Positions 4,202-47,702 of a stretch of 64,000 nt of DNA are shown in pieces. The DNA comes from Candidatus Woesearchaeota archaeon (GTDB lineage Archaea > Nanobdellota > Nanobdellia > Woesearchaeales > UBA119): assembly GCA_035363095.1 (NCBI GenBank), contig DAOSEK010000001.1, forward strand, positions 17,233-81,232. Reading direction: 5' to 3'. The notes beneath the pieces are model-generated. The model was not told where the DNA came from, did no database searches, and saw nothing but the letters and a program-made list of their open reading frames with translations. Position 1 is the first letter of the stretch; the number at the start of each line of letters is the position of its first letter. A program made the position numbers and the translations under genes.

Positions 4202-4544
4202 TTTCCCTCGTTTTTTTCTTAAACAAGTAATATTTAGGGGTAATTTAATCCATTTATAAAAATTTCTATAAAAAATATTGAAATTATAATATAAATTTTA
4301 AATTTATAGAGGAGAAAGCGTAGGGATTAAAGATATTTTTGTTTTGGGATTATATTTTTTAATAGGTTTAATAATTATTCCAATAAATTATTCCCATATT
4401 ATAAGGTATAAGGTTTTTCTATAAGGTATAAGGTTTTTCAATGGGATTAGAATTTATTAGGATATCAAAGTATAAATAAAATAAAAAAAAGAAGAAACCA
4501 ATGCATAGGAAGGAAACGTGTTTTTAAGATTAAATCCAGAATAG

Positions 4545-7500
4545 ACTATTGGTGGTCGCATGCTGAATGTCTCGCGTGAGCTTGACACTTACACACCGAC
4601 TCCATCAAACGGGTCTTCTTCCCGTGTCCTAAGTCTCTTTTCTAGGTGGGCTTCGTACTTAGATGCTTTCAGTACTTATCCCTTAAGGCGTAGCTGCCCG
4701 GCGTGCCTTGTCAGACAACCGGTAGACCAGAGGCCTCGGTTCCCCGTTCCTTTCGTACTAGAGGATCCTTCCTATCAGACTATTTCGCACTTCCAGTAGA
4801 TATTAAACCAACTGCCTCACAGCGTTGTGAACCCAGCTAACGATCCCTTTTAATGGGTGAACACCCCCACCCTTGGTCGCTTCTGCACGACCAGGATAGG
4901 AAGAGCCGACAGCGATGTAGCAAGCCTAGCCGTCGATATGAACTCTCGGGCTAGACAACTCTGTTATCCCCGGAGTAACTTTTCGGTCATCTCTATCCCC
5001 CATCAAGGAGATATAGAGGTTCGCTAGACCAGACTTTCGTCTCTGGATCCGTTCATGTTCGGGATCCAGTCAAGCTGGCTTATGCTCTTGCACTCAACTT
5101 CGGATTTCCAACCCGAATGAGCCAACCTTTGGGCTCCACTGATACCTTTTCAGCGGAGGACCACCCCAGTCAAACTGTCTATCAATGGGTGTCTTAGATT
5201 TCTCTAGTTAGTGGGGTAAGCTCTGAAGGGTGGTTTCTCAACTTTTGTCTACACTTGACCTAGCGACCAAGCTTTAGCAACTCCCACCTAGCCTGCACAT
5301 CAAAACTCACTCCACAGCCACAGACTACAGTAAAGTTTCACGGGGTCTTCACGTCCCACTGGAAGACACTGGCCTTTACACCAGTAAAGAGAGTTCAGGG
5401 GATTCTAACCGGGGACAGTGGGGGCCTCGTTACGCCATTCATGCAAGTCGCCATTTAAACGACAAGGTATTACGCTACCTTAAGAGAGTTATAGTTACTC
5501 CCGCCGTTTACCAGCTCTTAGCTCCGTTGAACCGAAGTTTGAAGTACTGGCACTGGGCAGACTTCACCAACTATACAAATCCTTTCGAATTAGCAGTTAG
5601 CTATGTTTTTGTTAAACAGTCGGACCCCCCTAGTCACTGAGCCCTGAAATCGCATTCTTAAGAAAACAATCACAGGGACCCCTTATCCCTAAGTTACGGG
5701 GCCAATTTGCCGAATTCCCTCGATTAGATTATATCCCTCACGCCTTGGGCTACTCACCCAGGGGCACCTGTGTCGGTTCTCGGTATGGTTACTTAGAATC
5801 TATGTAAATTCCCTTTTCACTGTCTCCTGGGCTCAGCCTAACAACCATAAGCTGCTCATCGAACATTTAGTTTTTTTCTCATCGTTACGATACTCGAAAA
5901 ACATGTTGTTCTTGAATCAAGCGACGGCTTGACTAGACCTACCCTGAAGAGTCAGAAATTTACCTTTCGTTACCGCAAATATCTAAGTAGTACAGGAATA
6001 TTAACCTGTTTCCCTTTCCCGGGATTGCCAGTTAGGCATCCGGTTAGGACCAACTAACCCTTGACTGATTTGCATTGTCAAGGAACCCTAGCCCTTTCGG
6101 CGACAGGGACTCTCACCCTGCTTAGATCCTACTACCGCCAAGATTCTCATTTAAACAAGGTCCACACCCTCTTACAAAGATGCTTCTGCCCTTGCAAAAC
6201 GCCAGTCTACAACGAAGCTTTTGGCTTGTCTATGGTATCGGTAACTGATTTAGCCCCGTCCATCTTCAGGGCTTATTGCCTCGAAGGGTAAGCTGTTACG
6301 CACTTTTTAAAGGATGGCTGCTTCTAAGCCAACCTCCTCTTTGTCTTAGGCAATAAACACCTTTCACCCTTTAACACTTAACCAGTATTTAGGGACCTTA
6401 ACCATAGTCTGGGTTGTTCCCCTCTCGCAATACAAGCTTATCCCGTATTGCCTTCTCTTGGAATCTAAGGCTCATGGCACATTCGGAGTTTGACAGAAAA
6501 CCGAGGGATTTCTCCCCCTAAATCCCCTATCAGTATCTCTACAGCGCCTGACACCTCCTCCAAGGCTTGACTACCGCCAATTTCGACTGGAACCAGCTAT
6601 TCCCGCACTCGATTGGCTTTTTACCCCTACACCCAGGTCAGAAGAACGCTTGTACACAGAACCTCTGCAGGCCTCCACGAGGTTTTACCCCCGCTTCACC
6701 TTGCCCAGGCGTAGATCGTGCGGCTTCGGGTCAAACCCTTGTGACTTCGGGCACATTAATACCCAGTCCCTTACTTTATCAGCTGCGGACTTTTCGGTTT
6801 CCCTACGAGTGCTCTGTGAAAACAGATTACTCTCGCCACAAAAGTATACTCCTTGGCACGTTATTCGAAACGGACGACAGAACACATTACGTGCCCTGTC
6901 GAGGTATAACCATCAGGTTTCAGGTTCTTTTAACTCCCTATCAAGGGTTCTTTTCAACGTTCCCTCACGGTACTATTCGCTATCGGTCTTGAAATGTGTT
7001 TAGGGTTGGAGGTTGATGCCCCCCGTCTTAACGCCTAATTTCCAATAGACGCTACTCTTGGACTCACTAGATTCTTGTTCAGTTACTCATACGGGACTTT
7101 CACCCTCTATGGTATCCCTTTTCCAGAAAATTTCTGATTCCCAAATATCAAGAATACGAAAGTGGCCAACACCACATCTCTGATATATTGCTATACCAGA
7201 TTCAGTTTGCCCTTAAACCGTTTTCGGTCGCCCCTAATAACGGCATCCCAATTGGTTTCTTTTCCTGCGGGTACTAAGATGTTTCAATTCCCCGCGTTCC
7301 CCCTTCTTTCGAAGTATCCTTAAAGGATATGAAGTCACATTAGGAAATCTCCGGTTCAATGTTTGCATGCAACTCGCCGGAGCATATCGCAGCTTGCCAC
7401 GTCCTTCTTCAGCATTTCAAGCCTAGTCATCCACCTGATGGCGTAGTAGGATTAATCTCTACGCTTCCTTCCTATGCACGGCCTCATCAACATGACTTAA

Positions 7501-7560
7501 GTGATATTTAAGCCAAAGCCAAATTTGGGTAATTTGGCATCTTAGCCCTTGATCCGGCAT
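4545..7560 (-). rRNA. rrl: 23S (large subunit) ribosomal RNA, boundaries approximate
   Basis: On the reverse complement there is a GC-rich, stop-codon-dense stretch of ~3 kb with conserved LSU segments. The 3' region reads ...GATGGAGTCGGTGTGTAAGTG... (compare E. coli GATAGGCCGGGTGTGTAAGCG). It lies downstream of tRNA-Ala in the archaeal 16S-tRNAAla-23S arrangement. The ORFs the track lists inside it are spurious. Confidence 0.85.
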
Positions 7561-7667
7561 AATAGATATGCCGAACTGCATTTTCAAATAAGCATCATCC
7601 AAAGTAATTCTGGACGATACCATATGATACATTGAAAACATAATTTGTTGAAAACATTAACTTTAAA

Positions 7668-7740
7668 TGGACCCGTCGGGATTCGAACCCGAGGCCTCCG
7701 CCTTGCAAGGGCGGCGCTCTACCAGCTGAGCTACAGGCCC
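7668..7740 (-). tRNA. tRNA-Ala (anticodon TGC) in the 16S-23S spacer
   Basis: The reverse complement reads GGGCCTGTAGCTCAGCTGGTAGAGCGCCGCCCTTGCAAGGCGGAGGCCTCGGGTTCGAATCCCGACGGGTCCA. It has a 7-bp acceptor stem with a G3-U70 pair, anticodon loop CTTGCAA and T-loop TTCGAAT. CCA is not encoded. Confidence 0.9.
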
Positions 7741-7920
7741 GTCTTTGCTTAGCGTATCAGCCTAATTGCTTAGTCCAAATCGCTAGGTAATTTGATTATG
7801 ATTTTTGTAAAATTTCTAAAAATATGAATAAAGGCTGCTTTAAGATTAATTTTATCATATTTTTCATCTAACTGATGATTGTATGAATTTTTTATTTTGC
7901 AAATTTAATTTTGAAAATAA

Positions 7921-9394
<1,474 letters not shown>

Positions 9395-9636
9395 AAGTTT
9401 TTTAGTCGCAAAGCTAATTTATTAGAAATCTTAAAGCAGCCTGATTCATACTTAACGAAAAAAGTTAAGCATACATAGACCCCGAACAAAAATATTTGCT
9501 ATGAAACTTGGTGGCGATAATTGTCGAGTAATTGTAGGGGAATCTTGTCCCATTTATAAACGTTTCGATTGGAAGATGTTTTATTTTAAAAGCTAATTTA
9601 ATGAAATTTTTTAAAATTGGAGTTTAATTTATTAAT

Positions 9637-9896
9637 GAAAAACCTCAGCATAAATGCCTGGGTATCTCGTGAATATTCGAGATTAATCCTTGCATGAATC
9701 AGTCTATTCTTACTTTAGCTTGAAAAATCAATAACCTTACCCTAACAGGCGAGGTATGTTGGTAATATGAAAGCATGCGCTGTATTAAAGCGAGGTTGTT
9801 GATTACAAAAAAGCGTACCAAGCCCTCTTATTGAAACACGAGGTATGCTTTTCTATTGACCAATGTATGCGAATGAACTGGATTTAATGAAATCAG
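9637..9896. repeat. Composite structured intergenic repeat, arranged A1(+)-B(+)-C(+)-A2(+)
   Basis: The first half of module A (gaaaaacctcagcataaatg...gcatgaatcagtctattc) is followed by module B (a ~75-bp element with 12-bp terminal inverted repeats, aaccttaccc...gcgaggttgttgat). Module C follows (acaaaaaagcgtaccaagccctc...acgaggtatgcttttctatt), then the 3' part of module A (caatgtatgcgaatgaactggatttaatgaaat). The same arrangement occurs in reverse at 14944-15207. Confidence 0.8.
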
Positions 9897-9996
9897 AATA
9901 TAGATTTAATTATTTTGAGATTTTTATTTCTCGACTTAAATAATGGATATTTTATTCTAGAAACTTGTTAATCTCATAATTCACAGATAAGTGATA

Positions 9997-10066
9997 AGTT
10001 ATTTCATACTAAGTTATTTCATACTAGGTTATTTCATACTAGGTTATTTCATACTAAGTGATTTCA
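9997..10066. repeat. Tandem direct repeat, 4 x 17 bp (gttatttcatactaRgt), followed by degenerate gatttca-containing copies
   Basis: The array can be read directly between 9998 and 10065. Related half-units (gtgatttcacaaaatgatttcagaataagcgatttcaaat) follow to ~10100. An AT-rich degenerate repeat zone (ttaatgatattt...) lies at 10120-10200. Confidence 0.8.
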
Positions 10067-10315: not shown

Positions 10316-12040
10316 TTAGTAGGTTCTTTTGTAATATTTAGTATGGAGTAGGTTATGAGCAATTTCACTTCCAGGCTTTTTTAGATATTCAGAATATAGT
10401 TTTTTTATCTGTGGATTTTCATGGCATTTTCTGATTGGGTTTTTTGAGTCATTTTGATATATTGCTTTTGCTCTGGCTAAAATTATTTCTTCGCTAGAAG
10501 GTATAGGCTGACCTCCACCACCTATACAACCGTGAGGGCAGGCCATTATTTCTACAAAATCAAGCTCGATTTTTTTTGATAAAATCATTTCAATTAGTTC
10601 TTTTGCTTTTGAGAGTGTATTTATGCTTGCAAATCTTAACAATTTTTCGTTAAGGTTTATTTCACCGTATTTTGATTGGGTGAATTGACGTAATTCTTTG
10701 AATTCTATTTTTTCTAAGGGTTTTCCTGTTGCAGATTCGTAAGCTGTCCTTAATGATGCTTCCATTACTCCTCCACTTGAGCCAAAGAGAGTTCCAGCCC
10801 CAGAAGATCTGCCTAATGGATTGTCAAATAGAGAGTCTAAAAGTATTGGAAAGTTTATTCCAGCACCTCTTATCATTCTTCCAAGTTCTCTAGTTGTTAG
10901 AGAATAGTCTACCTGCCCTTTAACTTCAGGTCTTGCGATATCAAATTTTTTTGATAGGCAAGGCATTATTGAAACTAAAACTATATTTTTAGAATCTATC
11001 CCTATTACTTCTGAGAAATAAGTTTTAACGATACTTCCAAGCATTTGATGTGGGCTTTTACAGGTTGAAAGATTTGGTATTAGGAAATGATATGAGTCTT
11101 CAACCATCTTTACCCAAGATGGACAGCAAGATGTAAACATTGGAAGGGGATTGTTTGATTTATTAGATAACCGTTCTAATAATTCGTTTGCCTCTTCGAT
11201 TATTGTTAAATCAGCCCCAAGTTCGGTATCAAATATATAATCAAATCCAAGCATCTTAAGAGCGGTTGGGATTTTTCCAGTCACTATAGTTCCAAAAGGC
11301 ATGCCAAATTCTTCGCCTAATGAAACTCTTATTGATGGTGCAACCTGTGCAATCACTATTTTCTTTTTGTCGTTTATTGCTTTTAATACGTTATCAATAT
11401 CGCTTTTTTCTTCAAGAGCACAAGTTGGGCAGTTTATTACACACTGGCCACAATGGGTACAATTGGTCTGGATTATAGTTTTGTTAAATGCTGGACCAAC
11501 TTCAAAATTTCCGCCTTTGTTTCGATAATCAATACAATCAATATCCTGCAACTGATCACATACCTGAACACAAAGTCCACACTTTATACAACGTGAAGGA
11601 TTTTTGATAAAGGCGGGTGATGAGTCATCTATTTTTGTAAATGAATAAGAAGTTTTTTCGTCAGGAACATTGTAATAAGGGGTGATTGATAGGTTTAGTT
11701 CATTTGCATAGGCTAAAAGTTTGCAATCTATCATCTTATTGCAAAGTAAACAATCAGATTGGTGATCAGATATCAAGAGTGCAAGATTTGTTTTTCTTGC
11801 TTGAATAACTTTTTGGGAGTTAGTGTTAATAACCATTCCTTCTTGGATATATGTAGAGCAGGCGGTTAGGAGATTTTCTCTGCCAACTACCTCTACAACA
11901 CAAAGTCTGCATGCTGCTCTAGGTTCTAATTTTTCATGATAACAAAATGTTGGGATTTCAATTCCCACTTTTTTAGCAGCATCAAGTATTGTAAGTTTTT
12001 CATTAAATTCATAATCCAGTTCATTTATTATTACTCGCAA
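10316..12040 (-). CDS. hydA: [FeFe]-hydrogenase catalytic subunit (H-cluster domain with N-terminal 2Fe-2S and multiple 4Fe-4S ferredoxin domains)
   Basis: The H-cluster motifs are present: L1 (FTSCCPSW), L2 (IMPCLSKKFD) and L3 (EIMACPHGCIGGGGQP). There is an N-terminal plant-type 2Fe-2S Cys pattern (CYHEKLEPRAACRLC). Two CxxCxxCxxxCP motifs are present (CIKCGLCVQVCD and CTHCGQCVINCP). Confidence 0.85.
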   Translation of the reverse strand: MRVIINELDYEFNEKLTILDAAKKVGIEIPTFCYHEKLEPRAACRLCVVEVVGRENLLTACSTYIQEGMVINTNSQKVIQARKTNLALLISDHQSDCLLCNKMIDCKLLAYANELNLSITPYYNVPDEKTSYSFTKIDDSSPAFIKNPSRCIKCGLCVQVCDQLQDIDCIDYRNKGGNFEVGPAFNKTIIQTNCTHCGQCVINCPTCALEEKSDIDNVLKAINDKKKIVIAQVAPSIRVSLGEEFGMPFGTIVTGKIPTALKMLGFDYIFDTELGADLTIIEEANELLERLSNKSNNPLPMFTSCCPSWVKMVEDSYHFLIPNLSTCKSPHQMLGSIVKTYFSEVIGIDSKNIVLVSIMPCLSKKFDIARPEVKGQVDYSLTTRELGRMIRGAGINFPILLDSLFDNPLGRSSGAGTLFGSSGGVMEASLRTAYESATGKPLEKIEFKELRQFTQSKYGEINLNEKLLRFASINTLSKAKELIEMILSKKIELDFVEIMACPHGCIGGGGQPIPSSEEIILARAKAIYQNDSKNPIRKCHENPQIKKLYSEYLKKPGSEIAHNLLHTKYYKRTY

Positions 12041-12168
12041 ATAAACACCTTTTTTTGATTGAATATCTTATTTTTTGAATTTTTATTTCGTTTTTTCTCT
12101 ATTTCTTACTATATTATTTTTTTATATTATTATACTTCATATCGTTATTTTTTATAATATTATTTTTT

Positions 12169-14328
12169 TTAATTAACTTCTTTTCCGGTCATATCTACTT
12201 TTATTATTGAATTTATAGGACATGATTGAACGCATTTTCCGCAATGAATGCATTTGTCTTGGAGTATTATGTGTTTTTTTCCTGTTTGACCATAGATAGC
12301 GTTCACAGGACAAACTGAATAACAATTATGGCAACCTATACAGCTATCAATTATTTTGTATGTGATTTTTGATTTGGCTACTTTTGATAGATATTCATCT
12401 TTAAAATATTTTAATGAGGACAGTATTGGGTTTGGAGCGGTTTGACCTAAACCGCAAAGGGAGTTTTCCTTTACATAATGTGCGAGTTTCTCTATTTTTT
12501 GGATATCCTGAATTGAACCATCTTTTGATATGATTCTTTCAAGCATATATTTCATTTGCCTAGTTCCTTCTCTACAAGGGGTACATTGGCCACAGCTTTC
12601 TTTTGATGTAAAATCCAAGAAATAATGGGCGAGTTCTAATATGGAGTTTGTTTCATCAAGCACTATCATTCCACCACTTCCAACTATTGAACCGGCTTCT
12701 TTTAATGATTCATATCCTATTTTGAGATTTTTAAGTGAATAGGGGATACAACCTCCAGAAGGACCTCCCGTCTGTATTGCTTTTATGTGACTGCCGTTAA
12801 GAGAACCACCACCTATTTTTTCGATAATTACTGATAATTTTTCACCGAAATTTACTTCGATGAGACCTGTGTTTTTTATGTTGCCACTTAGTGCTAAGAC
12901 TAGGGTGCCACCTGAATTTTCATCTCCTAATTCTGAAAACCATTCTGCACCATTTTTTAGGATTAGAGTTACGCAACAATATGTTTTTACATTGTTTATG
13001 TTTGTTGGCATTGAATATATTCCTTGACTTGCAGGATAAGGTGGTCTTGGTCTTGGATTGCCTCTATTTCCCTCAATTGAATGGATTAGTGCAGTTTCTT
13101 CACCGCATACAAATGCACCTGCGCCACTCATAAGTTGAAGATCAAAATCAAAACCTAAGTTTAATACGTTTTCTCCAAGAAATCCTCTTTCATACATGGT
13201 TTGAATGGCTTTTTTAAGGGTTGACTCTGCTAAAGGGTATTCTTTTCTTAGGTAGATGAAGCCTTTTTTCGCGCCTGTTACGAAAGCACAGATTAGCATA
13301 CCCTCAAGTAGTAAGTAAGGGTTACTTTCAAGAATGCCTCTATCCATGAATGCACCAGGGTCGCCTTCATCGGCATTACATACGATGTATTTTAAGGGTA
13401 TTATGCGATTGTTATCAATTTTATTTGGATTTGTTTTTGAAGTGTTATCTGGTGTGTTGTTTAAATCGTTATTTGAAGGAAGTTTTGCATCTTTTAGTAA
13501 CCTCCATTTTTTTGCTGTTGGGAATCCAGCGCCTCCTCTTCCTCTCAGTTTTGATTTTTCTAGGTTTAATAGAGTTTTTTCGCTTCCTTCAAATACTGCG
13601 TTTTTAAGGCCTATAAAACCACCTAGATGAATATATTCTTCAAGGTTTAAGGGATTGATAAAGCCACAATCTTTTAGTATCACCCTGTTTTGATGTTTGA
13701 AAAAAGGTATATCGGCAAAGTAGGGATATGATTTTTTTTCATCTGAGAATGTTTTTTCTGAGAGTATTTTGTTGTCTATGATCGAAGCGATAATAGAACT
13801 TGCATCACTTGGTTTGAGATGACAGTAGAATATGTTTTGTGGTTGTATTATTGCCGTTGGACCTACTTGACAAAAGCCATGACACCCAGTCTGTTTGATT
13901 TGGATGGAAATTTTTTTTGAGTTTAGAAGGGATTTGTTTTCAATTATTGTTTTTTTTATTGCAGAAATTATGTCTAATGAATCGCGGGATTTGCAACCCG
14001 TTGCCCCACAAACACAGATGGTGTATTCGCTTATGGTATGTTTTTTTGTTATATTCTTTTTTGATGTATTTTCTTTTGAACTAGGTTTTTTTATATGAGA
14101 TTTTTTTATATGAGGGCTTTTTGTTCTTTTGATTTTTTTTGTTGTGTTTTTAATCGCAAGGGTATCAGTGACAAGGGTATTAGTGATTGGGTTATTATTA
14201 GGATTATTAGGATTAGTATTATTAGCATTATTATTATTAGGAGTAGTATTATTAGTTACTGGATCACTAGTTAAAGTTTTTAATTTTGTTGTTTTCTTTT
14301 TTTGATTTTTGTTTTTTGGGTTTTTCAT
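12169..14328 (-). CDS. hydB: NuoF-like flavoprotein subunit of a bifurcating-type hydrogenase (HydB), with an N-terminal low-complexity extension
   Basis: A thioredoxin-like 2Fe-2S domain is present (ICVCGATGC...CHGFCQVGP). An NADH/FMN-binding 51-kDa-type core follows (GRGGAGFP, GAGAFVCGEETALIHSIEG). A 4Fe-4S site (ESCGQCTPCREG) and two C-terminal ferredoxin motifs (CIGCHNCYSVCP and CIHCGKCVQSCP) are present. The first ~100 aa are N/T/P/K-rich low complexity. The start codon overlaps the hydC stop by 4 bp (ATGA). Confidence 0.8.
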   Translation of the reverse strand: MKNPKNKNQKKKTTKLKTLTSDPVTNNTTPNNNNANNTNPNNPNNNPITNTLVTDTLAIKNTTKKIKRTKSPHIKKSHIKKPSSKENTSKKNITKKHTISEYTICVCGATGCKSRDSLDIISAIKKTIIENKSLLNSKKISIQIKQTGCHGFCQVGPTAIIQPQNIFYCHLKPSDASSIIASIIDNKILSEKTFSDEKKSYPYFADIPFFKHQNRVILKDCGFINPLNLEEYIHLGGFIGLKNAVFEGSEKTLLNLEKSKLRGRGGAGFPTAKKWRLLKDAKLPSNNDLNNTPDNTSKTNPNKIDNNRIIPLKYIVCNADEGDPGAFMDRGILESNPYLLLEGMLICAFVTGAKKGFIYLRKEYPLAESTLKKAIQTMYERGFLGENVLNLGFDFDLQLMSGAGAFVCGEETALIHSIEGNRGNPRPRPPYPASQGIYSMPTNINNVKTYCCVTLILKNGAEWFSELGDENSGGTLVLALSGNIKNTGLIEVNFGEKLSVIIEKIGGGSLNGSHIKAIQTGGPSGGCIPYSLKNLKIGYESLKEAGSIVGSGGMIVLDETNSILELAHYFLDFTSKESCGQCTPCREGTRQMKYMLERIISKDGSIQDIQKIEKLAHYVKENSLCGLGQTAPNPILSSLKYFKDEYLSKVAKSKITYKIIDSCIGCHNCYSVCPVNAIYGQTGKKHIILQDKCIHCGKCVQSCPINSIIKVDMTGKEVN

Positions 14329-14810
14329 TTTTTATTTAGAGAATGTTTTTTTAGTATATCTTTTATTTTCTCTTTGTTTAGGTTTCCATATATTTTTCCA
14401 TTTATCATTGCAACGGGTGCAAGTGCACAAGCTCCAAGGCATCTTACTTCCTGAAGAGAAAATGCTAAGTCTTTTGTGGTTTCTCCAAGTTTTATTCCAA
14501 GTTCGGTTTCAAATATTTTTATTATTTCAAGACTGCCTTTCACTCTACAAGCAGTCCCATCACAGACTTGAATTGATATTTTTCCGTTTTTTTGAAAACT
14601 AAAGTAGCTGTAAAATGATAGTATGCTAAATATTCTTGATAGGGGAATTTTTAATTCTGTTGAGATGAAGTCTGCATCATCTGGGGATACAAATCCCTGT
14701 TTTTCTTGAATTTCTATTAGTAAAGATAATAGGTTTAGCCTTTTTTGTTTAGTGTGATTGTGTACTATTGTTTTAACCTCATTTGAGATGTTTGTGTTTA
14801 AATTTGTCAT
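14325..14810 (-). CDS. hydC: NuoE-like thioredoxin-fold [2Fe-2S] subunit (HydC)
   Basis: The 161 aa ORF has the NuoE/HoxE Cys pattern (CDGTACRVKGS...CLGACALAPVAMINGKIYG). It is translationally coupled to hydB. Confidence 0.75.
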   Translation of the reverse strand: MTNLNTNISNEVKTIVHNHTKQKRLNLLSLLIEIQEKQGFVSPDDADFISTELKIPLSRIFSILSFYSYFSFQKNGKISIQVCDGTACRVKGSLEIIKIFETELGIKLGETTKDLAFSLQEVRCLGACALAPVAMINGKIYGNLNKEKIKDILKKHSLNKK

Positions 14811-14943
14811 GATGTATCCTTCTTTGGGTGCTGATTTTTTATTTTTGTTAATTTATTGTAAAAAGGTTTTTTATGAATTTTTCAAAGATTTTAAATAGAT
14901 TTGAAATTCAATTGTGAATTAGTTTGAAACTCTAAATTAGTTT

Positions 14944-15207
14944 GATTTCATGAAATCCTAGTTCATTTTGTATACTTTGGTTAATAGAAAAGCATACCGC
15001 GTGTTTCAATAAGAGGGTTTGGTACGCTTTTTTGTAATCAACAACCTAGCTTTAATACAGTGCATGTTTTTATATTACCTATATGCCTCGCCCTTTAGGG
15101 GGAGGTTGTTGATTTTTCAAGCAAAAAGGTTGAATGAACGGATTCACATAACCTTTAACCTCAATTATTCGCGGGATACCTCGATATGTATGCCAATTTT
15201 TTTCATT
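14944..15207. repeat. Composite structured intergenic repeat, arranged A2(-)-C(-)-B(-)-A1(-)
   Basis: This is the reverse-complement arrangement of the 9637-9896 locus. It reads gatttcatgaaatcc...catactttgg (A 3' part), aaaagcataccgcgtgtttcaataagagggtttggtacgctttttt (C), atcaacaacct...ggaggttgttgat (B, with perfect 11-bp terminal inverted repeats) and ttttcaagc...gaatgaacggattcacat...acctcgatatgtatgcc...ttttcatt (A 5' part). Confidence 0.8.
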
Positions 15208-15525
15208 ATGATTTTGTACTAATGTTTATTTTCCTTTTAATGTTACCTAAATTTGACTGTGTTGATATTTAGTTGAGTGTATAATTTGATTGTAAAGATA
15301 CTATTAAATGAAGTAATGTATAGACCACTACGTTTTATCCTGAAAACAAGATTATTTAAAGCTTTTTATTTTAAAATCTAATAAAAAAGTGCACTAAAAG
15401 AGTGTTTTTTCTATTTTGTTTAGTTTCATTTGTTCTTTTGGATATTGTTCTTGAATATTTTGTTTTAATGTGAGCATAACCAGTTTGTCGAGTAGAGCAT
15501 ATTAGATAAAAAAATGAGGAAAATA

Positions 15526-15860
15526 TATGTTGAGAAGAGAAAGGTAGGGTAAATGAAAAGGTGTTGAGGAAAGAAATATAAGTTGAGTTAAGAGATGTTG
15601 AGAAAAGAAAGATAGGGTAAATGAAGAGATGTTAAAGATAGAGATATAAGTTGAGTTAAGAGATGTTGAGAAAAGAAGTATAGGGTAAATGAAGAGATGT
15701 TAAAGATTGAGATATAAGTTGAGTTAAGAGATGTTGAGAAAAGAAGTATAGGGTAAATGAAGAGATGTTAAAGATTGAGATATAAGTTGAGTTAAGAGAT
15801 GTTGAGAAAAGAAAGATAGGGTAAATGAAGAGATGTTGAGGTAAGAAATGTAAAGTAAGG
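15526..15860. repeat. Tandem direct repeat (minisatellite-like), ~4.5 copies of a 67-69-bp unit built from two ~34-bp half-units sharing aagagatgtt
   Basis: Units start at ~15580, 15649, 15717 and 15784 (aagttgagttaagagatgttgagaaaagaaRKatagggtaaatgaagagatgttaaagatWgagatat). A partial copy lies upstream and another downstream. Stop codons occur in all frames. There are no interspersed unique spacers, so this is not CRISPR. Confidence 0.85.
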
Positions 15861-16003: not shown

Positions 16004-17203
16004 ATGTTGATAGGCATTGTAGGAAAACCAAATGTTGGGAAATCGACTTTTTTTAAGGCTTCGACTTTAGCGGATGTTTATATTGCGAATTTTCCGTTTG
16101 CAACAATTAAGCCCAATCATGGGGTAGGCTTTGTCAAGGTTAAATGTGTTGATGAGTTTTTTAATGTGCAATGCATGCCTAAACATGGATATTGTATTAA
16201 TCATAACAGGTTTGTTCCGATTGATATGATTGATGTTGCTGGTCTTGTTCCCGGAGCTTTTGAAGGTAAGGGAATGGGTAATCAATTCTTGGATGATTTA
16301 AGGCAAGCGGATGCTTTAGTTCATATTATTGATGCTTCAGGAAGCACTAATGAGAAAGGAGAGAGTGTAGAAATTAATTCTTATGACCCTGCAAATGATA
16401 TTCGATTTTTGGATACAGAGATTGATATGTGGTTTTTAGGGATTTTTAAGAAGGTTTGGAGTAGGTTTTCAAGGCAGGTTATGCAGGAACATGAGGAGAT
16501 TTCTAAGGCCATTGCAAAACAGTTTACTGGGCTTGGTGCTGATGAGGATATGATTAAAGATATTGCTAATTCTTTGTCTTTGAAAGAGAAGGCTATTACT
16601 TCTTGGAGTGATGAGGATCTTAGCAGATTTGTTAAAGAAATTAGAAGGAGAACTAAGCCGATGGTAATTGCTGCAAATAAGGCAGATACACCTTGTGCAA
16701 TGGAGAATATTGAGAGGCTTAGAAAAGAGTTTTCGGATTATAAGATCATTCCATGCTCAAGTGAGGCTGAACTTGCTTTAAGAGAGGCAGGGAAAAAAGG
16801 GCTTATTGAGTATATTCCCGGAGAATCAGATTTCAGGATTTTAAAAGAGGATAGTCTTGATGAAAAACAAAAGAGGGCTTTAGAGTTTATTAGAAATTCT
16901 GTTTTGAAAAGGCTTGGCTCTACAGGGGTTCAAGAGATATTAAATACTTGCGTTTTTGATGTTTTAAGATATGTTTATGTTTTTCCAGGGGGAGTTAGTA
17001 AACTTGAGGATCAATACGGAAATGTGCTTCCGGATTGCTTTTTAATGAAACCCGGCTCTACAGCTTTAGATTTTGCATATAAGGTTCATAGTGATATTGG
17101 AGATAATTTTGTAAAGGCGATTGATGTGAAAAAGAAGATGCCTGTTGGAAGAGATTTTGTGCTTTCAAATGGGGATGTTATTGAGATTATGACAAGGAAA
17201 TGA
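16004..17203 (+). CDS. YchF/OLA1-family P-loop GTPase/ATPase (archaeal Ygr210-type with C-terminal TGS-like domain)
   Basis: The N-terminus IGIVGKPNVGKSTFFKASTLADVYIANFPFATIKPNHGV matches the YchF G1 region (GIVGLPNVGKSTLFNALT...ANFPFCTIEPN). A C-terminal TGS-like beta-grasp is present (GDVIEIM). Confidence 0.75.
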   Translation: MLIGIVGKPNVGKSTFFKASTLADVYIANFPFATIKPNHGVGFVKVKCVDEFFNVQCMPKHGYCINHNRFVPIDMIDVAGLVPGAFEGKGMGNQFLDDLRQADALVHIIDASGSTNEKGESVEINSYDPANDIRFLDTEIDMWFLGIFKKVWSRFSRQVMQEHEEISKAIAKQFTGLGADEDMIKDIANSLSLKEKAITSWSDEDLSRFVKEIRRRTKPMVIAANKADTPCAMENIERLRKEFSDYKIIPCSSEAELALREAGKKGLIEYIPGESDFRILKEDSLDEKQKRALEFIRNSVLKRLGSTGVQEILNTCVFDVLRYVYVFPGGVSKLEDQYGNVLPDCFLMKPGSTALDFAYKVHSDIGDNFVKAIDVKKKMPVGRDFVLSNGDVIEIMTRK

Positions 17204-25626: not shown

Positions 25627-26826
25627 ATGTCTTGCAAAAAGTTTTTTACAGATATTAAATTTTTTGATGACCACTCAGTTTTGATGGATAATTTTTCTTT
25701 TCCAGTTTCTAAAGAAGATTTGTTGGATGCCGGCGCAATAGATGTGGGTTTTGATTTTTTGGAGTTTGAGGATGACACTGCTCTGAATAGTATTCTAAAT
25801 GTAATTGAGAAAGGGTTATCAAATCTTAAAAGCAATTTTACGAATAAATCCGCAACATATCTTCATAAGGGACTTAGTATACCATTAATTGGACATGTTG
25901 GGTTTGGAATTATTGATAGAGGGACTAATGCAATTGAGCTTAAACCTGTTAGTGGATGCAATTTGAAGTGTTTGTTTTGCTCAGTTGACCAAGACCTAAG
26001 AAGCAGGGATTTTGTTATTGAAGAGGAGTTTTTGATAAGCGAGCTTGAGAAGTTATTAAATCTTAAGAAAAATAAATGTTATGTGTTTATTAATGCGCAT
26101 GGCGAACCTTTGTTTTATTCACCACTAAATAGACTATTTAGAGATTTGAAATCCAATAATAAGGTTAAAGGAATTATACTTATTACTAATGGAAGCGTTT
26201 TGTCTAAGAGAAAGATTGATGAGTTTTTTGAATGTGGTCTTAACCAAATAAATATTTCTATACATTCTCTTGACCAAAAGAAGGCTAGGGTGCTGTCAGG
26301 GGTTAGTGGATATGACTTGAATAAGATTTTAGATAATATTATTTATGCACAAAAAAAAGGGATAAGAATAGTTGTTGCTCCGGTTGTTTTGTTTAATTCA
26401 AAAAGACTTGAGAAAATGAAAATCCCTTTTAATGAATCAGATATGTTTGAAATAGCCAAGTTTTGTAAGAAGCATAATTTTTTGTTTTCTGCTCAAAATT
26501 ATTTAAGTTATAAGCTTGGAAAAAGAATTTCTAAGGAAAAAGATTTTGATGAGTTTTATGTTTTTTTGGATGAGATTAAAGAAAGGTTTGGTAAAGATAT
26601 TTTTGATTTGGGAATGGAAATAATAAAGGATAATGTACTAAAAAACCCATTTAGAAAGGGCGAGATTGTGAGATTAAAAAAGGGTTTTACGGGGTTTTTT
26701 AATGATGAATCCATTTGTGTTTTAAGAGACCGGCTTGTGAGTGTTGTAGGTTCAAATAATAGAAACGAATTTAATGTAAAAATAATTAGAACTAAGGATA
26801 ATATTATTAAGGCTATCACTTTGTAA
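25627..26826 (+). CDS. Radical SAM domain protein with a C-terminal TRAM-like domain
   Basis: A CX3CX2C motif is present (GCNLKCLFCSVD). The C-terminus (KGEIVRLKKGFTGFF...SVVG) has the character of a TRAM-like beta-barrel. The start codon abuts the S3Ae stop (TAAATG). Confidence 0.65.
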   Translation: MSCKKFFTDIKFFDDHSVLMDNFSFPVSKEDLLDAGAIDVGFDFLEFEDDTALNSILNVIEKGLSNLKSNFTNKSATYLHKGLSIPLIGHVGFGIIDRGTNAIELKPVSGCNLKCLFCSVDQDLRSRDFVIEEEFLISELEKLLNLKKNKCYVFINAHGEPLFYSPLNRLFRDLKSNNKVKGIILITNGSVLSKRKIDEFFECGLNQINISIHSLDQKKARVLSGVSGYDLNKILDNIIYAQKKGIRIVVAPVVLFNSKRLEKMKIPFNESDMFEIAKFCKKHNFLFSAQNYLSYKLGKRISKEKDFDEFYVFLDEIKERFGKDIFDLGMEIIKDNVLKNPFRKGEIVRLKKGFTGFFNDESICVLRDRLVSVVGSNNRNEFNVKIIRTKDNIIKAITL

Positions 26827-30675: not shown

Positions 30676-31947
30676 TTAGCCCCACTTTTTTATTGCCAGA
30701 GCTAATTCAGGGTGATTTTGGGCATATTTTTTTAAGGAAATTTTTGATAGGCTTGCGTCAAGTGCCTGTCTTATTGCTTTAGCTCCTTGAGTCGTTCCTT
30801 TAGGATGGCCATGACATCCACCACCAAATTGAAATACTGTGTGAACGCCAAAGATTTTGCATAGTGCGGGGATATGCCCTGGATGAAGTCCGCCTGAACT
30901 TACCGCAAGCGTGGGTTTTATTTTGCTCCAGTCTTCTGTTAGAGATTCCATTTCAATCTTATCGGCCTCAATTTCATTAAATATTATTTTAACTTCGCTT
31001 TCTGAACCTTGCATTTTGCCAACGGCTGTTCCAATATGAACTAAGTCTACTCCTGCAAGTCTTGATATTTTTGCGATTACAAGCATTGAAACACCATGAT
31101 GGGGATTTCTTGTGATTGCGGCATGCATTGCTCTGTGAGCATGGATTATTAGCCCTTTTGAGTTGTTTCTAAGGGTTTGAAGTGCTCCAAAACCAGTTGT
31201 TAGAATATCTACCATAATGGTTTCTCCACCTAAAGATTTTACATAATCAAGACGTTTTAGCATCTCTAAAGATTCTGCAGTAACGTTTGCAAGGTATAGC
31301 TTTTTTTCGCCTGTTTTTTGCTCTGCTTTTCTTTTTTGTTCAAGGGTTTTTTTAATTCTTTCTCTGAATTTGTTAAATGTCATGTTTGTGAGATTTTCAT
31401 CATCTTTTACTATGTCTATTCCACCAACCCACGCGTCGTAGGCTACTTTTGCATGTTCGGTTGCGCTTAGACCCACTTTTGGTTTTATTATTGTTCCTAC
31501 AAATGGACGATTGTATACACCTGTTATTTTTCTAATCCCTTCGATACCATGCAAGGGACCTTTGAATGATTCTATGTACTTTTTTGGGAAGTATATGTTT
31601 TCAAGTCTTAGTGTGTTTAATAATTTCATTCCAAATATGTTTCCGGCAATTGCTGATAGGAGTTGAGGAAGATTGCCTAGTTCGAAAAGCTCAATTGGAT
31701 ATGCAATTTTTATTTTGTATAAATTTTTGGAGATTTTTGTTATTGAATAAACGTGAGGGGATAGTCTTTTTTGTATTGAGCTTGTTAGGGTGTATATGTC
31801 TGTCCATGTGCCTATTGAACTTTCTGCAGCAATTTGTGAGGAAACAGATTCTATTGAGTTTGATTTTGCTTTAGAAACTAAGTAATAACAGATTAGTTCT
31901 TCTTTTTTTGGAATATACTCTAAATCAACGTATTCGAATTTTTTCAT
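30676..31947 (-). CDS. rbcL: Ribulose-1,5-bisphosphate carboxylase/oxygenase large subunit, archaeal form III-like
   Basis: The lysine-carbamate and catalytic loop region is GTIIKPKVGLSATEHAKVAYDAWVGGIDIVKDDENLT. The C-terminus has GGLHPGH and FQFGGGCHGHP. The protein is 423 aa, typical of form III. Confidence 0.85.
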   Translation of the reverse strand: MKKFEYVDLEYIPKKEELICYYLVSKAKSNSIESVSSQIAAESSIGTWTDIYTLTSSIQKRLSPHVYSITKISKNLYKIKIAYPIELFELGNLPQLLSAIAGNIFGMKLLNTLRLENIYFPKKYIESFKGPLHGIEGIRKITGVYNRPFVGTIIKPKVGLSATEHAKVAYDAWVGGIDIVKDDENLTNMTFNKFRERIKKTLEQKRKAEQKTGEKKLYLANVTAESLEMLKRLDYVKSLGGETIMVDILTTGFGALQTLRNNSKGLIIHAHRAMHAAITRNPHHGVSMLVIAKISRLAGVDLVHIGTAVGKMQGSESEVKIIFNEIEADKIEMESLTEDWSKIKPTLAVSSGGLHPGHIPALCKIFGVHTVFQFGGGCHGHPKGTTQGAKAIRQALDASLSKISLKKYAQNHPELALAIKKWG

Positions 31948-41439: not shown

Positions 41440-42490
41440 GTTATTATAGTATAAGACATAAATAACGCATACTTTATATAGTAATTGTACCATTATGTTC
41501 TTATGATAAACTTACAAACTCGTGAACTCTTTCTTAAGTGGAAAAAAGAAGGTAAAACGCAACAAAACATCGCTGAATTAGTGGGTTGTAATCAATCTGC
41601 GGTTAGTCGTTTATTAGTAAAGCACAAAAAGATGAGAAGTGTCAAGAACATTCCTCGTAGTGGTCGACCAACACCGCTAACAAAGGAAACACTTACTAAA
41701 CTCAAAAAAGAGTTTAAAAAACAGACAAGAGCGGCAAATAAAAAATTTTGTTCAATCGACACAAAACTATTTTCTCAATTAATTGAAAAAGAGGCGAATA
41801 AAAAATACACCACAAGACATATTGAAAGAATTATGCACAAATAGGGGGTTTTTTAATAACTAATCGTTCACAGCATATCAAAAATGATCCGAAAAAAATG
41901 CAGAATTTCGTGAAGATTTTAAAAAAAACAAAAAACAATATATTTGGGTCCTGAAATTATAGCAATAGACGAAGCAAGTTTTCAATTAACAACAACCTAC
42001 AAAAAAATTTTGTTTTCTCGTGGAGAAACACCGCTAGGTGCATTTTTTTGGAGCAACAAAAAACTTATAACTTTTGGTGCTTTAACAAGCGAACACAAAT
42101 TCTACTACGATTTTTATTACTTACAAAATAGTTTAACATTCAAACACTTTTTAAGAACCTTGTTTGAAAAATTAGACAAGAAAAAGAAATACTTTTTGAT
42201 CTTAGACAACGTAGGATTTCATAAAACGATATGCCTAAAAAATTTACTCTAAGAATACTCCCATCAAATAAGTGTCGAGCATATTCCACCTTTCTCTCCC
42301 GAACTAAATCCAATAGAAACATGCTGGAAAGTAACAAAAAATTATATGACACTATCCTAACATTTCAAAGACCTATACGAAATGCAAGAAAAGTTAGAAA
42401 ATTTTTGGTCAGAACAGATTTTTATGCAAGATTTTATGCGTTACTTATGTCGCCAACTACTATAATATTACTAAATAGAACAAATGTATT
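41440..42490 (+). mobile_element. Decayed IS630/Tc1-mariner-family insertion sequence, boundaries approximate
   Basis: ORF 41485-41844 is the HTH N-terminal part of an IS630 transposase (QQNIAELVGCNQSAVSRLL...RSGRPTPL). ORF 41944-42252 carries the DDE core (IDEASF...LDNVGFHKT). After an in-frame TAA at 42250 the same frame continues with the third acidic residue region (SVEHIPPFSPELNPIETCWKVTKNY), ending at 42357. The HTH and DDE parts lie in different frames. Confidence 0.75.
41944..42357 (+). pseudogene. IS630-family DDE transposase catalytic domain interrupted by an in-frame stop
   Basis: See the mobile_element entry. The D, D and E motifs are present but are split by a TAA at 42250-42252. 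The catalytic domain is separated by a frame change from the upstream HTH ORF. Confidence 0.65.
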
Positions 42491-42536
42491 TTACGATAAC
42501 GAAAAATTATTAAGCATAAAGGGCAAAGAAAAATAC

Positions 42537-43820
42537 ATGAAACGAACCTTGACAGTAGATGTTGCTGATAGAATTGGCGAGAAAGTTAAGATATGTGGCA
42601 GGGTATCTAATATAAGGATTTTCAAGGAAGTTGAATTTTACATTATTAGAGACAGGACAGGAGAGATTCAGGCTGTTTTTGAATCACAAAATGCTTTTAA
42701 AAAAGACGTTAAGAAGAATGCCATTGTTGAAGCCTATGGAGAGATAATTAGTGAAAATAGAGCTCCAGGGGGTTTTGAGCTAATAGTTGAAAGAATTGAT
42801 ATTTCATCTGAACCTCTGATTTCGCAACCTATTTCAACAGAGTCATGGTCAAAAACTAACATTGATTTAGAATTGGACAACAGAGCAATTTCACTTAGAA
42901 ATCCTGCAAATATAGATATTTTTGAACTTCAAAGTGCCATAGCAAAATACTTTAGAGATTTCTTTAGCAATCAAGATTTTGTAGAAGTATTTACACCAAA
43001 AATCGTAAGTAAAGGAGTCGAATCAGGTTCAAAAACGTTTAAATTAAATTATTTTGGACATCAAGTAGAACTAGCACAAAGTCCACAACTTTATAAGCAA
43101 ATCTTAGTAGGTACACAACTTGAAAGAGTGTTTGAAATTGGACATGCTTACAGAGCAGAATTGCATGATACTCCAAGGCATTTAAATGAGTTTATTAGCA
43201 TGGATGTGGAGATGTCTTACATTGATTGTTTAGACGATCTTTTAAAACTTGAAGAATCGTTTTTACATCAGCTCTTTTCAGAAATTAATATAAATTTCAA
43301 GGATATGTTAAATAGGAGAAAAATTGAACAACTGCCAGAAATAAAGAATATTCCAAGGGTGGCTTATGAAGAACTAAAAAAAATGTACAAAAAAATTAGG
43401 AAACATGAAGTTTCGATAAAGGATAGCAATTTAGAAAAATTTGCCTGTGACTATTTTATGGAAACAGAAAAGCTACCACTTGTGTTTATTACACATTTTC
43501 CATTAGTACAAAGACCATTTTACACAAAGCCGTCAGATGATGGAGTTTGTTCCGAGTCTTTTGATTTAATATATAGTGGATTAGAAATTACATCAGGTAG
43601 CATGAGAATTCATCAATATGACTTACTTAAAGAAAGCTTAAGAAAGTATAAGATTGATGAGGGAGGGATTAAATCTTATTTACAAGCATTTGAAGGTGGA
43701 ATGCCAAAACACGGTGGGTTTGCCATTGGACTTGAAAGATTGACATCACAAATTCTCAATCTGGATAATGTAAAACTAGCATCGCTATTTCCAAGAGATC
43801 GAAAGAGATACGTTCCCTGA
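42537..43820 (+). CDS. Class IIb aminoacyl-tRNA synthetase of the AspRS/AsnRS type (paralog 1)
   Basis: An N-terminal OB-fold anticodon-binding domain is present (VKICGRVSNIRIF...IIRDRTGEIQAVFE). Class II motifs are present (QSPQLYKQ, FEIGHAYRAELHDTPRHLNEFISMDVEM, GGFAIGLERL). The C-terminus is LFPRDRKRYVP. The track ORF start at 42231 reads through IS630 remnant sequence. The likely start is the ATG at 42537 (MKRTLTV). Confidence 0.7.
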   Translation: MKRTLTVDVADRIGEKVKICGRVSNIRIFKEVEFYIIRDRTGEIQAVFESQNAFKKDVKKNAIVEAYGEIISENRAPGGFELIVERIDISSEPLISQPISTESWSKTNIDLELDNRAISLRNPANIDIFELQSAIAKYFRDFFSNQDFVEVFTPKIVSKGVESGSKTFKLNYFGHQVELAQSPQLYKQILVGTQLERVFEIGHAYRAELHDTPRHLNEFISMDVEMSYIDCLDDLLKLEESFLHQLFSEININFKDMLNRRKIEQLPEIKNIPRVAYEELKKMYKKIRKHEVSIKDSNLEKFACDYFMETEKLPLVFITHFPLVQRPFYTKPSDDGVCSESFDLIYSGLEITSGSMRIHQYDLLKESLRKYKIDEGGIKSYLQAFEGGMPKHGGFAIGLERLTSQILNLDNVKLASLFPRDRKRYVP

Positions 43821-43826
43821 AAAATG

Positions 43827-43926
43827 AAAAATCTCAATATAAATATTCAATGTATTTCGCAAATAGTTGAGGTTAATTTTTTGTGAGTCCATCTCTTCTC
43901 ACGTTGGTATTAGGACCAAAGTATAT
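43827..43926 (+). repeat. Degenerate partial copy of repeat module A
   Basis: The copy reads gaaaaatctcaatataaatattcaatgtatttcgcaaatagttgaggttaatttt...ggaccaaagtatat. It is collinear with the module A 5' part and the accaaagtat segment. Confidence 0.5.
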
Positions 43927-43983
43927 AAAATAATTGATCCACAAAATCAAAATTAGATAAAGTAACTTGTGAGGTGTAACAGG

Positions 43984-45018: not shown

Positions 45019-45317
45019 AATTTGTCCAAAAATAGTAAAAAAAAGACTACTCAGAGAAGATTAAGCATGGCAAAAAAGAAATTATTATATTGTCATCACT
45101 TTGAAAATTGTTGATAGCAAATTTGAACCAACGGAAAATTTAAAATGTTTTTATGTGTGGCAATTAAGAAATATCTTTTATGTGAAGTATATTGCATATA
45201 GAGTTTTGTTTGGAGATCATAAATTGTTAATTATACCAAATAATTACATGTTACTTTTGAAAAGAATTTAACATTTTTTCAAAGGATAATTATTTAAATA
45301 GAATACGGGGATTTGCA

Positions 45318-46664: not shown

Positions 46665-46737
46665 AGTTAAATATAAGTTGTTCTCTTCAAAAGAACAAAT
46701 CTTACAGGTTTTTGGTGTTAATAATGAACCTCTCCCC

Positions 46738-47170: not shown

Positions 47171-47290
47171 TTTCCATTTAGCTCATCTCCGAAGAGCAAA
47201 GCTCACGCTAACTTCGGGTGGTTAGTGCGTGGCGCAAAAAATTTTCGCTCGCCACGTATTTTTTTATTTTAGAAAAGAAAAAGATTTGTG
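47170..47290. mobile_element. GC-rich hairpin-bearing IS200/IS605 end region
   Basis: Two perfect palindromes are present: ccgaag...cttcgg and cgtggcgcaaaaaattttcgctcgccacg. They lie adjacent to the tnpA pseudogene. The local composition contrasts with the AT-rich surroundings. Confidence 0.5.
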
Positions 47291-47662: not shown

Positions 47663-47702
47663 CTTTTTTACTTGTCATGTGTAGATAAGGAGTGTTATAT
47701 GA

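Follow-up and report, generated by a model that had tools for sequence, protein, structure and literature searches.

The window, a stretch of 64,000 nucleotides from a metagenome-assembled genome (MAG) labelled 'Candidatus Woesearchaeota archaeon', contains the operon hydC-hydB-hydA for a trimeric [FeFe]-hydrogenase of the HydABC type. Its identity as a real archaeal operon of this type is near certain. The central statement of the initial annotation, that an archaeon encodes a HydABC hydrogenase, is correct, but such enzymes have been published since 2024 and the exact proteins are already annotated at NCBI (the window proteins are deposited as HOI18262-HOI18289, on a 147.5-kb contig); in this respect the window adds one more well-assembled, already deposited example. 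New here is the HydB subunit of an archaeal clade which, judged by its sequence, lacks every ligand of the B2 metal site, yet passes every other sequence test for a bifurcating enzyme.

The B2 site and the architecture of the three subunits

The three open reading frames (ORFs) are co-oriented on the minus strand and fill exactly positions 10316-14810, in agreement with the gene arrangement and span described before. hydC (14325-14810; 161 aa; HOI18263.1) encodes a NuoE-like subunit with a thioredoxin fold and the [2Fe-2S] cluster C1, hydB (12169-14328; 719 aa; HOI18262.1) a NuoF-like subunit for flavin mononucleotide (FMN) and NADH with the clusters B5, B1 and B3/B4, and hydA (10316-12040; 574 aa, TTG start) the catalytic [FeFe]-hydrogenase subunit. 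Pfam domains and the best solved matches agree with these identities, which had been proposed in the initial annotation. The three genes had also been described as translationally coupled. This holds for hydC and hydB, where an ATGA overlap joins the end of the former to the start of the latter, but not for hydB and hydA, which are kept apart by a spacer of 128 nt (12041-12168, minus strand; 13% GC) with 15-nt tandem repeats; the tandem repeat around this spacer maps to 12100-12173. In the closest relative (L008, from GCA_964615385.1, approximately 80% DNA identity), the gap between hydB and hydA measures 16 nt. A Shine-Dalgarno-like AGGTG stands 6 nt ahead of the TTG start of hydA.

For A. 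mobile, B2 has been described with the ligands C438, C476 (replaced by Thr in FeFe enzymes), H525, C531 and C536, and the site was modelled there as an electron-relaying [2Fe-2S] cluster (Schut et al. 2022, PMC9304861). In T. maritima, B2 holds Zn bound by three Cys and one His and was proposed to serve as the hinge of the mobile C-terminal 'bridge' domain of HydB (PMC9499530). In an alignment with 7t2r_B, the five A. mobile positions fall on S562 (codon 12643-12645), Ile, K649, a gap and a gap in HydB of the window. Pairwise alignments with solved B subunits place a deletion of approximately 10 residues immediately ahead of the C-terminal ferredoxin domain, at a site that reads A-H-x5-C-P-A-x2-C in A. 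mobile, A. woodii, 9bov_B and C. saccharolyticus NfnB. The AH-x5-C-P-A-x2-C segment is replaced by the shortened linker LSKVAKSKITYKII (12349-12390, minus strand), which together with S562 marks the complete loss of B2. Where bacterial HydB coordinates Zn by three Cys plus one His, the window protein has Ser, Lys and the 10-residue deletion.

This loss extends to the entire archaeal clade to which the window protein belongs. Among the 120 best HydB homologues, the His and Cys ligands are lost in nine of nine clade members (P0148-P0154, P0156 and P0158, not P0155; these include HydB of L008 and of the relatives L009 and L012), whereas the columns of the His and three Cys (C438, H525, C531 and C536) are 100% conserved in the 111 others. 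A second sample, 150 representatives at the 50% identity level, contains 48 sequences with a canonical ferredoxin domain, two of which are devoid of B2; one of these two, the top match, probably stands for the same clade, and the other is P0311. In the literature, 1550 of 1558 BfuB sequences have the B2 His, which is absent from non-bifurcating homologues (PMC9304861). A literature search combining HydB, zinc and DPANN returned no paper.

At the other diagnostic positions, HydB has the residues of a bifurcating β-subunit. Losey et al. (2020, PMC7311640) characterised these subunits by A/E232 together with M234, F367 and a GGPSG stretch at 427-431 (T. maritima numbering). HydB contains A326 and M328 (PGAFMDR), F406 (GAGAF), GGPSG at 521-525 and extra Fe-S domains, and is opposite throughout to the non-bifurcating state, which combines T/S232, K/S/A234 and Y367 with the lack of both GGPSG and extra Fe-S domains. 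The non-bifurcating enzymes of the S. wolfei/S. aciditrophicus type likewise consist of HydA with NuoF- and NuoE-like partners and have no B2 His, but their β-subunits carry T/S-x-K/S/A and Tyr and are devoid of GGPSG and extra Fe-S domains (PMC7311640). F182, another diagnostic residue (Schut et al.), was left unused, as its position in the 7t2r_B alignment was uncertain.

The domain order of HydB comprises an N-terminal thioredoxin-like [2Fe-2S] domain (B5), the NuoF FMN domain with a [4Fe-4S] cluster (B1), and a C-terminal domain with two [4Fe-4S] clusters (B3/B4). Pfam Complex1_51K is matched with E = 4e-37, and the best solved matches are all B subunits of the Bfu type, with 7t2r_B on top (1e-181) and 7q4v_B, 9n5u_B and 8a6t_B below it. 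All 16 Cys ligands for B1, B3, B4 and B5 are retained (C107, C112, C149, C153; C579, C582, C585, C625; C663, C666, C669, C673; C693, C696, C699, C703). An AlphaFold2 model built from 48 aligned homologues reaches a mean predicted local distance difference test (pLDDT) score of 81.7 and a predicted template modelling (pTM) score of 0.77, with a pLDDT of approximately 90 in the C-terminal domain. The earlier description of the enzyme as 'bifurcating-type' is borne out at the Losey positions and calls for a caveat at B2, all ligands of which are missing. Five conserved BfuB clusters, among them a penta-coordinate B2 [2Fe-2S] cluster, served to define the Bfu family (PMC9304861). The window enzyme shares the BfuB/BfuC core architecture of the A. 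mobile NiFe-HydABCSL, but none of the B2 ligands, and since one defining feature of the family is not found, it is filed as a variant and not as a plain member.

For all three subunits, the best solved matches are the HydABC enzymes of T. kivui, A. woodii and T. maritima (8a6t, 7q4v/8a5e and 7p5h), with which the window enzyme shares the ligands of B1, B3/B4, B5 and C1 as well as the FMN/NADH signature. HydC (Pfam 2Fe-2S_thioredx, E = 3.9e-46) has T. maritima HydC as its best solved match (7p5h_C, 2e-41), also resembles T. kivui HydC and keeps the four Cys of C1 (VCDGTAC...CLGAC, corresponding to CxxxxC...CxxxC). HydA is approximately 47-55% identical to the solved bacterial HydABC enzymes. 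It has the M3-type layout, with a [2Fe-2S] cluster, a His-ligated [4Fe-4S] cluster, two further [4Fe-4S] clusters, the H-domain and a small-subunit-like tail (Pfam Fe_hyd_lg_C, E = 4e-88; Fe_hyd_SSU, 2e-23). The bifurcating HydA1 of T. kivui is its best solved match (8a6t_A, 3e-173), followed by A. woodii HydA1 and CpI; the T. kivui protein (571 aa) shares its domain order and the TSCCPSW motif. Against the NCBIfam model FeFe_hydrog_A6 ('NADH-dependent [FeFe] hydrogenase, group A6'), HydA scores 762.4 bits, 2.6 under the cut-off of 765. Gene order, Pfam domains, the A6 score and the best solved matches together predict an enzyme of the trimeric group A3 (the 'A6' of NCBIfam).

The translation reproduces exactly the three H-cluster motifs quoted in the initial annotation: L1, FTSCCPSW (11114-11137), L2, MPCLSKKFD (10940-10966), and L3, EIMACPHGCIGGGGQP (10505-10552). 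Residues were mapped by HMMER alignment to CpI chains, with a numbering that matches the published residue numbers. The concern that a proper alignment might reveal missing H-cluster ligands was checked in this way, and every ligand is present (C306, C361, C501 and C505), together with the proton-relay C305. The motif cores, C501 and C505 are invariant across the 120 closest HydA homologues. The aligned CpI residues E279, E282, R286, C299, C300, S319, C355 and K358 are all kept, so that the entire proton-transfer pathway (E279, E282, R286, S319 and C299) and K358 are intact.

That L2 ends in Asp and not in Glu, as pointed out before, is confirmed by the alignment of D367 with CpI E361. Three of the 120 closest homologues have Asp at this position, and all three belong to this genus-level lineage; the 117 others, including CpI and T. 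kivui HydA1, have Glu. The residues S308, L362, S363 and H503 are likewise common only to the query and its two closest sequences (3/120). A literature search on CpI E361 yielded nothing usable on the effect of E361D. HydA thus appears to be a group A [FeFe]-hydrogenase with an intact H-cluster site, in which E361D is a conservative change. As a separate observation, 70 of the 120 homologues, A. woodii HydA1 among them, have Ser (TSCSP) in place of the second Cys of L1 (CpI C300 column); TSCCP is retained in the clade of the query and in T. kivui.

Compared with bacterial HydABC, HydB of the window has two added segments. The first is an N-terminal extension of approximately 100 aa (14029-14328, minus strand), which is of low complexity, rich in Asn, Lys, Thr and Pro, and confined to the genus-level lineage. 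Its length in the three closest sequences is 104, 95 and 61 aa; of the remaining 117 HydB homologues, a single one has 61 aa and all others at most 37 aa. The second is an Asn-rich insertion of 31 aa (13393-13485, minus strand), which begins after KKWRLLKDA and separates the Gly-rich FMN loop (GRGGAGFPT..KW) from the KYIVCNADEGDPGAFMDR strand; this position holds four residues in 112 of 120 homologues and 31, 23 and 43 residues in this lineage. In the AlphaFold2 model, pLDDT drops below 50 at residues 1-94 and 295-306, and both segments are predicted to be disordered. They coincide with short tandem DNA repeats (9-22 nt at the N-terminal extension) and defy alignment with the L008 protein. Rather than functional domains, they may be repeat expansions that an AT-rich genome has tolerated.

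Genomic setting and age of the operon

The initial annotation had taken [FeFe]-hydrogenases to be essentially restricted to bacteria and eukaryotes, a premise that was overturned in 2024. According to Greening et al. (2024, Cell, PMC11216029), archaea encode [FeFe]-hydrogenases, and their most widespread type is group A3 HydABC, which was recorded in six or more DPANN phyla and explicitly linked to the Woesearchaeales. The archaeal A3 HydABC enzymes are predicted to reoxidise NADH and ferredoxin, and for the archaeal group A enzymes several lateral acquisitions from bacteria were inferred (PMC11216029). Trimeric A3 hydrogenases were also reported from Woesearchaeota MAGs, where they are transcribed in situ (2024 Microbiome, PMC11606122). 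Woesearchaeota are placed in the DPANN kingdom Nanobdellati. The operon resembles these DPANN systems in its host group, the three subunits, the predicted role, the inferred bacterial origin and, in the sequence searched, the absence of HydEFG. The available text of the two papers contains no mention of a loss of the B2/Zn site, of an extension or insertion in HydB, or of the Glu-to-Asp exchange in L2, and the structural model presented there by Greening et al. is that of an Altarchaeota enzyme.

A chimeric contig, which the initial annotation had asked to be checked, can in practice be excluded. Across ychF-hydCBA-16S, the window is colinear with three or more other assemblies: L001 (an 88.7-kb MEGAHIT contig), L002 (a 19-kb SPAdes contig) and L003 follow it from the gene of a T2SSE ATPase through ychF and hydCBA into the 16S gene with 99.7-99.98% identity. 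The same neighbourhood is found on the 88.8-kb JGI contig Ga0116194_1000128, and nine or more contigs, which stem from several samples and assemblers, encode the identical HydA protein. GC content is approximately 33% throughout the window except for the rRNA genes and is even across the hydA-16S junction. Directly downstream of hydA, on the same strand, lies an archaeal rRNA operon (4528-9393, minus strand) with 16S at 7923-9393, tRNA-Ala at 7668-7740 (called by ARAGORN) and 23S at 4528-7458; the rRNA genes give full-length Rfam matches to SSU_rRNA_archaea (1449 bits) and LSU_rRNA_archaea (2636 bits). Archaeal genes flank the operon on both sides, among them those for S3Ae, S8e, L11, RpoL, LSM, LonB, type III RuBisCO, an archaeal-type HemK2 and a RecJ-like protein. 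With ribosomal protein S3Ae as the query, a search returned seven matches, the nearest beyond the genus being 42% identical, and gave no phylum; the small number of relatives suggests a sparsely sampled lineage.

Trees were built by neighbour-joining or from identities for the top 120 HydA and HydB matches and support the clade, not a direction of transfer or a donor. In the neighbour-joining tree of HydA, the query groups with P0002 and P0003 (89% identity) and next with P0004-P0008 (53-57%), beyond which P0117, P0111 (labelled Nanobdellota) and P0009 are found. Woesearchaeota labels are attached to P0007 and to the P0006 cluster, and the members of the clade P0001-P0008 stand in archaeal contexts. 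The nearest named bacterial HydA proteins (Caldisericota, Marinitoga, Omnitrophota and clostridia) are 47-50% identical. Three inspected relatives (L009, L010 and L012) have the order hydC-hydB-hydA amid archaeal genes for aEF-1alpha, aEF-2, aIF5A, S10 and ProRS, with a conserved Dus-GCD14 pair directly upstream of hydCBA. In L008, the operon lies between ychF and the 16S leader, as in the window.

Between the window and L008, dN/dS amounts to 0.04 for hydA, 0.08 for hydB and 0.07 for hydC; dS is near saturation and the values are approximate. For all three genes, pN is far below pS. hydCBA is under strong purifying selection. The even GC content, the clade-wide gene order and the synteny with L008 indicate that any transfer was old, and the operon appears to be an old resident of the archaeal clade that moved to the ychF/rRNA locus in the genus of the query. 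Of the horizontal acquisition proposed in the initial annotation, the bacterial origin is the published view (PMC11216029), but the adjacency to the rRNA genes is no evidence of a recent transfer.

Two further observations concern the locus. A Dus gene occurs at L076 20073-20375, approximately 10 kb beyond window position 1 and approximately 20 kb from hydA past the rRNA operon, and this position hints at a rearrangement that relocated the operon. Synonymous divergence from L008 is higher in the operon (dS 1.6-2.5 and pS 0.67-0.72 for hydA, hydB and hydC) than in the neighbouring ychF (dS 0.68), and the 16S leader is 90.7% identical to that of L008. The contrast in dS may stem from constrained codon usage in ychF, or from the replacement of the operon or of its flanks by recombination.

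Function, maturation and competing explanations

The operon would encode a cytoplasmic trimeric-type [FeFe]-hydrogenase of HydDB group A3. By analogy with bacterial HydABC, the complex would couple the oxidation of NADH to that of reduced ferredoxin at the 'flavobicluster' (FMN-B1-C1) during sugar fermentation and pass the electrons on to the H-cluster for the formation of H2 (confurcation), a reaction that should be reversible in principle. The clade differs from every characterised enzyme by a HydB without the B2 metal site (the Zn hinge), and the genus in addition by the predicted disordered HydB segments and by a few HydA substitutions beside the H-cluster, including E361D (CpI numbering). 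The bacterial origin of the operon is taken from the literature, and the trees show that its residence in the archaeal clade is old. We consider it somewhat probable that the HydABC encoded here is functional, has long resided in Woesearchaeota and forms H2 by confurcation of NADH and reduced ferredoxin; bifurcating function as such is roughly an even bet.

The maturation system looked for consists of HydE (TIGR03956), HydG (TIGR03955) and HydF (TIGR03918). As described before, none of the three maturases is found in the 64-kb window, and none was detected in the 10 kb beyond either end or in the non-redundant coding sequence sampled from this lineage and its close relatives, approximately 196 kb in all (ORFs of 250 aa or more at 62 further repeat-bearing loci, including those of the sibling MAG and of metagenome contigs). 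Seven of the radical S-adenosylmethionine (SAM) candidates from the sampled loci were scored against NCBIfam and none is HydE- or HydG-like; six candidates with an N-terminal P-loop, judged by sequence alone (for example EF-1alpha, aIF5B, RFC and Rad50-like), include no HydF-like protein. Two genes of the window were rejected as maturase candidates: the radical-SAM gene at 25627-26826 (for HydE/HydG) shows weak similarity to MoaA, and the gene at 16004-17203 (for HydF) encodes a GTPase of archaeal YchF-related type (549 bits). A full HydEFG set is present in five of 130 archaeal genomes with [FeFe]-hydrogenases, and an alternative maturation route was proposed (PMC11216029). The absence of maturases from the sampled sequence matches this published archaeal pattern, and the operon is a further archaeal [FeFe] case without maturases that bears on the alternative route of H-cluster assembly.

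Several points weigh against a functional confurcating enzyme of Woesearchaeota. Every B2 ligand is missing from HydB, a metal fills B2 in all solved Bfu enzymes, and the B2 His is otherwise missing mainly from non-bifurcating homologues (PMC9304861). H338 of the near-universal EGDPH motif is Tyr in HydB; the His is found in 97% of other homologues, and Tyr, Phe or Leu takes its place in the clade of the query. HydE, HydF and HydG were not found in the part of the genome examined, and the assays of Greening et al. cover groups A1, B and E and include no archaeal A3 enzyme (PMC11216029). The placement in the phylum consists of submitter labels, and the sibling MAG GCA_964615385.1 (HydA 89% identical) is labelled 'uncultured Methanosarcinales archaeon'. 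One repeat-bearing contig (L024) falls in a 'Candidatus Saccharibacteria' bin. Since the labels Woesearchaeota, Methanosarcinales and Saccharibacteria conflict, not all of these labels and bin assignments can be correct.

The loss of the B2 hinge could instead uncouple the ferredoxin-binding C-terminal domain from the FMN site, or fix it in position, and leave an active hydrogenase that does not bifurcate but evolves H2 in a simple NADH- or ferredoxin-dependent manner. We regard this as unlikely, though far from negligible. It agrees with the loss of the ligands in nine of nine clade members and their retention in 111 other homologues, with the absence of the B2 His from non-bifurcating HydB homologues while only 8 of 1558 BfuB sequences miss it (PMC9304861), and with the role in the conformational gating needed for coupling that Furlan et al. 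ascribed to the hinge (PMC9499530). HydB is, however, of the bifurcating kind at all Losey positions, its ferredoxin domain is under purifying selection, and the known non-bifurcating β-subunits are devoid of B3/B4 and of the N-terminal clusters (PMC7311640). Moreover, Nfn-Bfu structures from 2025 assign the bifurcation site to FMN, B1 and C1, place B2 outside it and describe B2 as not redox-essential; all solved members of the family nevertheless carry a B2 metal (PMC12018979).

With no HydEFG at hand, HydA might also be devoid of the [2Fe] subcluster, and the complex could have another redox role, such as NADH:ferredoxin transfer, or depend on a host or partner. The lack of HydEFG in the window, in 20 kb of flanking sequence and in the approximately 196 kb of related coding sequence is in line with this idea, as is the rarity of full maturase sets among archaeal [FeFe] genomes (5/130; PMC11216029), but we judge it improbable. 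The H-cluster ligands, K358 and the proton pathway are kept, and dN/dS is lower for hydA (0.04) than for hydB or hydC, so that an unused active site would be hard to explain. The cultured H2 producer Ca. P. syntrophicum likewise has no maturases, archaeal [FeFe] enzymes from genomes without maturases became active upon artificial maturation (PMC11216029), and the search covered part of the genome. It is barely credible that the operon is a recent cassette with terminal inverted repeats or an assembly chimera of bacterial and archaeal DNA, even though an inverted repeat of 160 nt (9714-9873 and 14967-15126; 88% complementary, with arms that align over approximately 290 nt) brackets hydCBA exactly. 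Because of the repeat copies, the short-read Logan contigs L004 and L005 break within them, at 9834 and 15048, but longer assemblies from other samples and assemblers run through both repeats and the hydA-16S junction, with uniform GC content. Both copies are absent from L008 although its operon lies at the same locus, and the repeat belongs to a dispersed family with 56 or more distinct copies, which sits between genes in 66 of 67 cases. The repeats were therefore rejected as the ends of a mobile hyd cassette, and an identity of 47-50% to the nearest bacterial HydA likewise argues against a recent arrival.

The functional HydABC reading has consequences for the role of B2, which is disputed between two groups, one describing a Zn hinge for domain movement and the other an electron-carrying [2Fe-2S] cluster; in the later view, B2 is dispensable for redox chemistry. 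As a whole clade has no B2 ligands and keeps the other hallmarks of bifurcation under strong purifying selection, it offers a ready-made test case. We give somewhat less than an even chance to the full proposal that the Woesearchaeota HydABC clade is a natural, functional bifurcating hydrogenase without a B2 metal, matured without HydEFG. If true, the bifurcating core would be smaller than that of any solved enzyme (FMN, B1, C1, B3/B4 and B5), and the clade would be a natural experiment settling the need for a Zn or 2Fe site in the conformational gating of bifurcation. For research on flavin-based electron bifurcation, this is a modest but concrete lead.

Repeats and neighbouring genes

The two repeat copies around the operon are part of its context and not of the enzyme. 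Copy B (9620-9910, minus strand) lies between hydA and the 16S leader, and copy A (14930-15220, plus strand), in the opposite orientation, between hydC and ychF. The distinct copies of the family define an element of approximately 260 nt with a core of approximately 150 nt. An invariant 26-mer of this core occurs 12 times in the MAG of L008 and is also found in 50 stretches of large metagenome contigs from JGI, with up to at least eight per contig. The element shows an orientation bias of approximately 2:1 toward the direction of the neighbouring genes and contains a TTTATAT motif and short hairpin-forming segments. A comparison with Rfam gave no match at E<=1, and a structured RNA is not supported, as the RNAalifold energy is only -5.7, similar on both strands, and no compensatory pairs are seen. 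The repeat could be an element similar to a miniature inverted-repeat transposable element (MITE), an intergenic regulatory or promoter-bearing repeat, a terminator module or a small RNA (sRNA).

Tandem repeats are also found close to the operon. A 68-nt unit is present in 4.6 copies (94% matches) at 15527-15837, between ychF and the repeat element, and its copy number varies, with a gap of approximately 98 nt in L001 and L003 relative to the window and L002. A 15-nt unit is repeated 4.8 times at 9995-10066.

The gene for type III RuBisCO (30676-31947, minus strand; HOI18274.1) is typical of the DPANN AMP-salvage pathway and fits the fermentative lifestyle inferred for the hydrogenase. Further along the window, at 41944-52105, lies a gene cluster for Asn/Asp/Gln-tRNA metabolism. 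It comprises three paralogous genes for class IIb aminoacyl-tRNA synthetases (42231-43820, 45318-46664 and 47703-48995), an asparaginase gene (43969-45018), tRNA-Asn (47590-47663) and gatC, gatA and gatB. A DDE_3 transposase fragment of 102 aa (approximately 41944-42252) abuts the first synthetase gene of this cluster.

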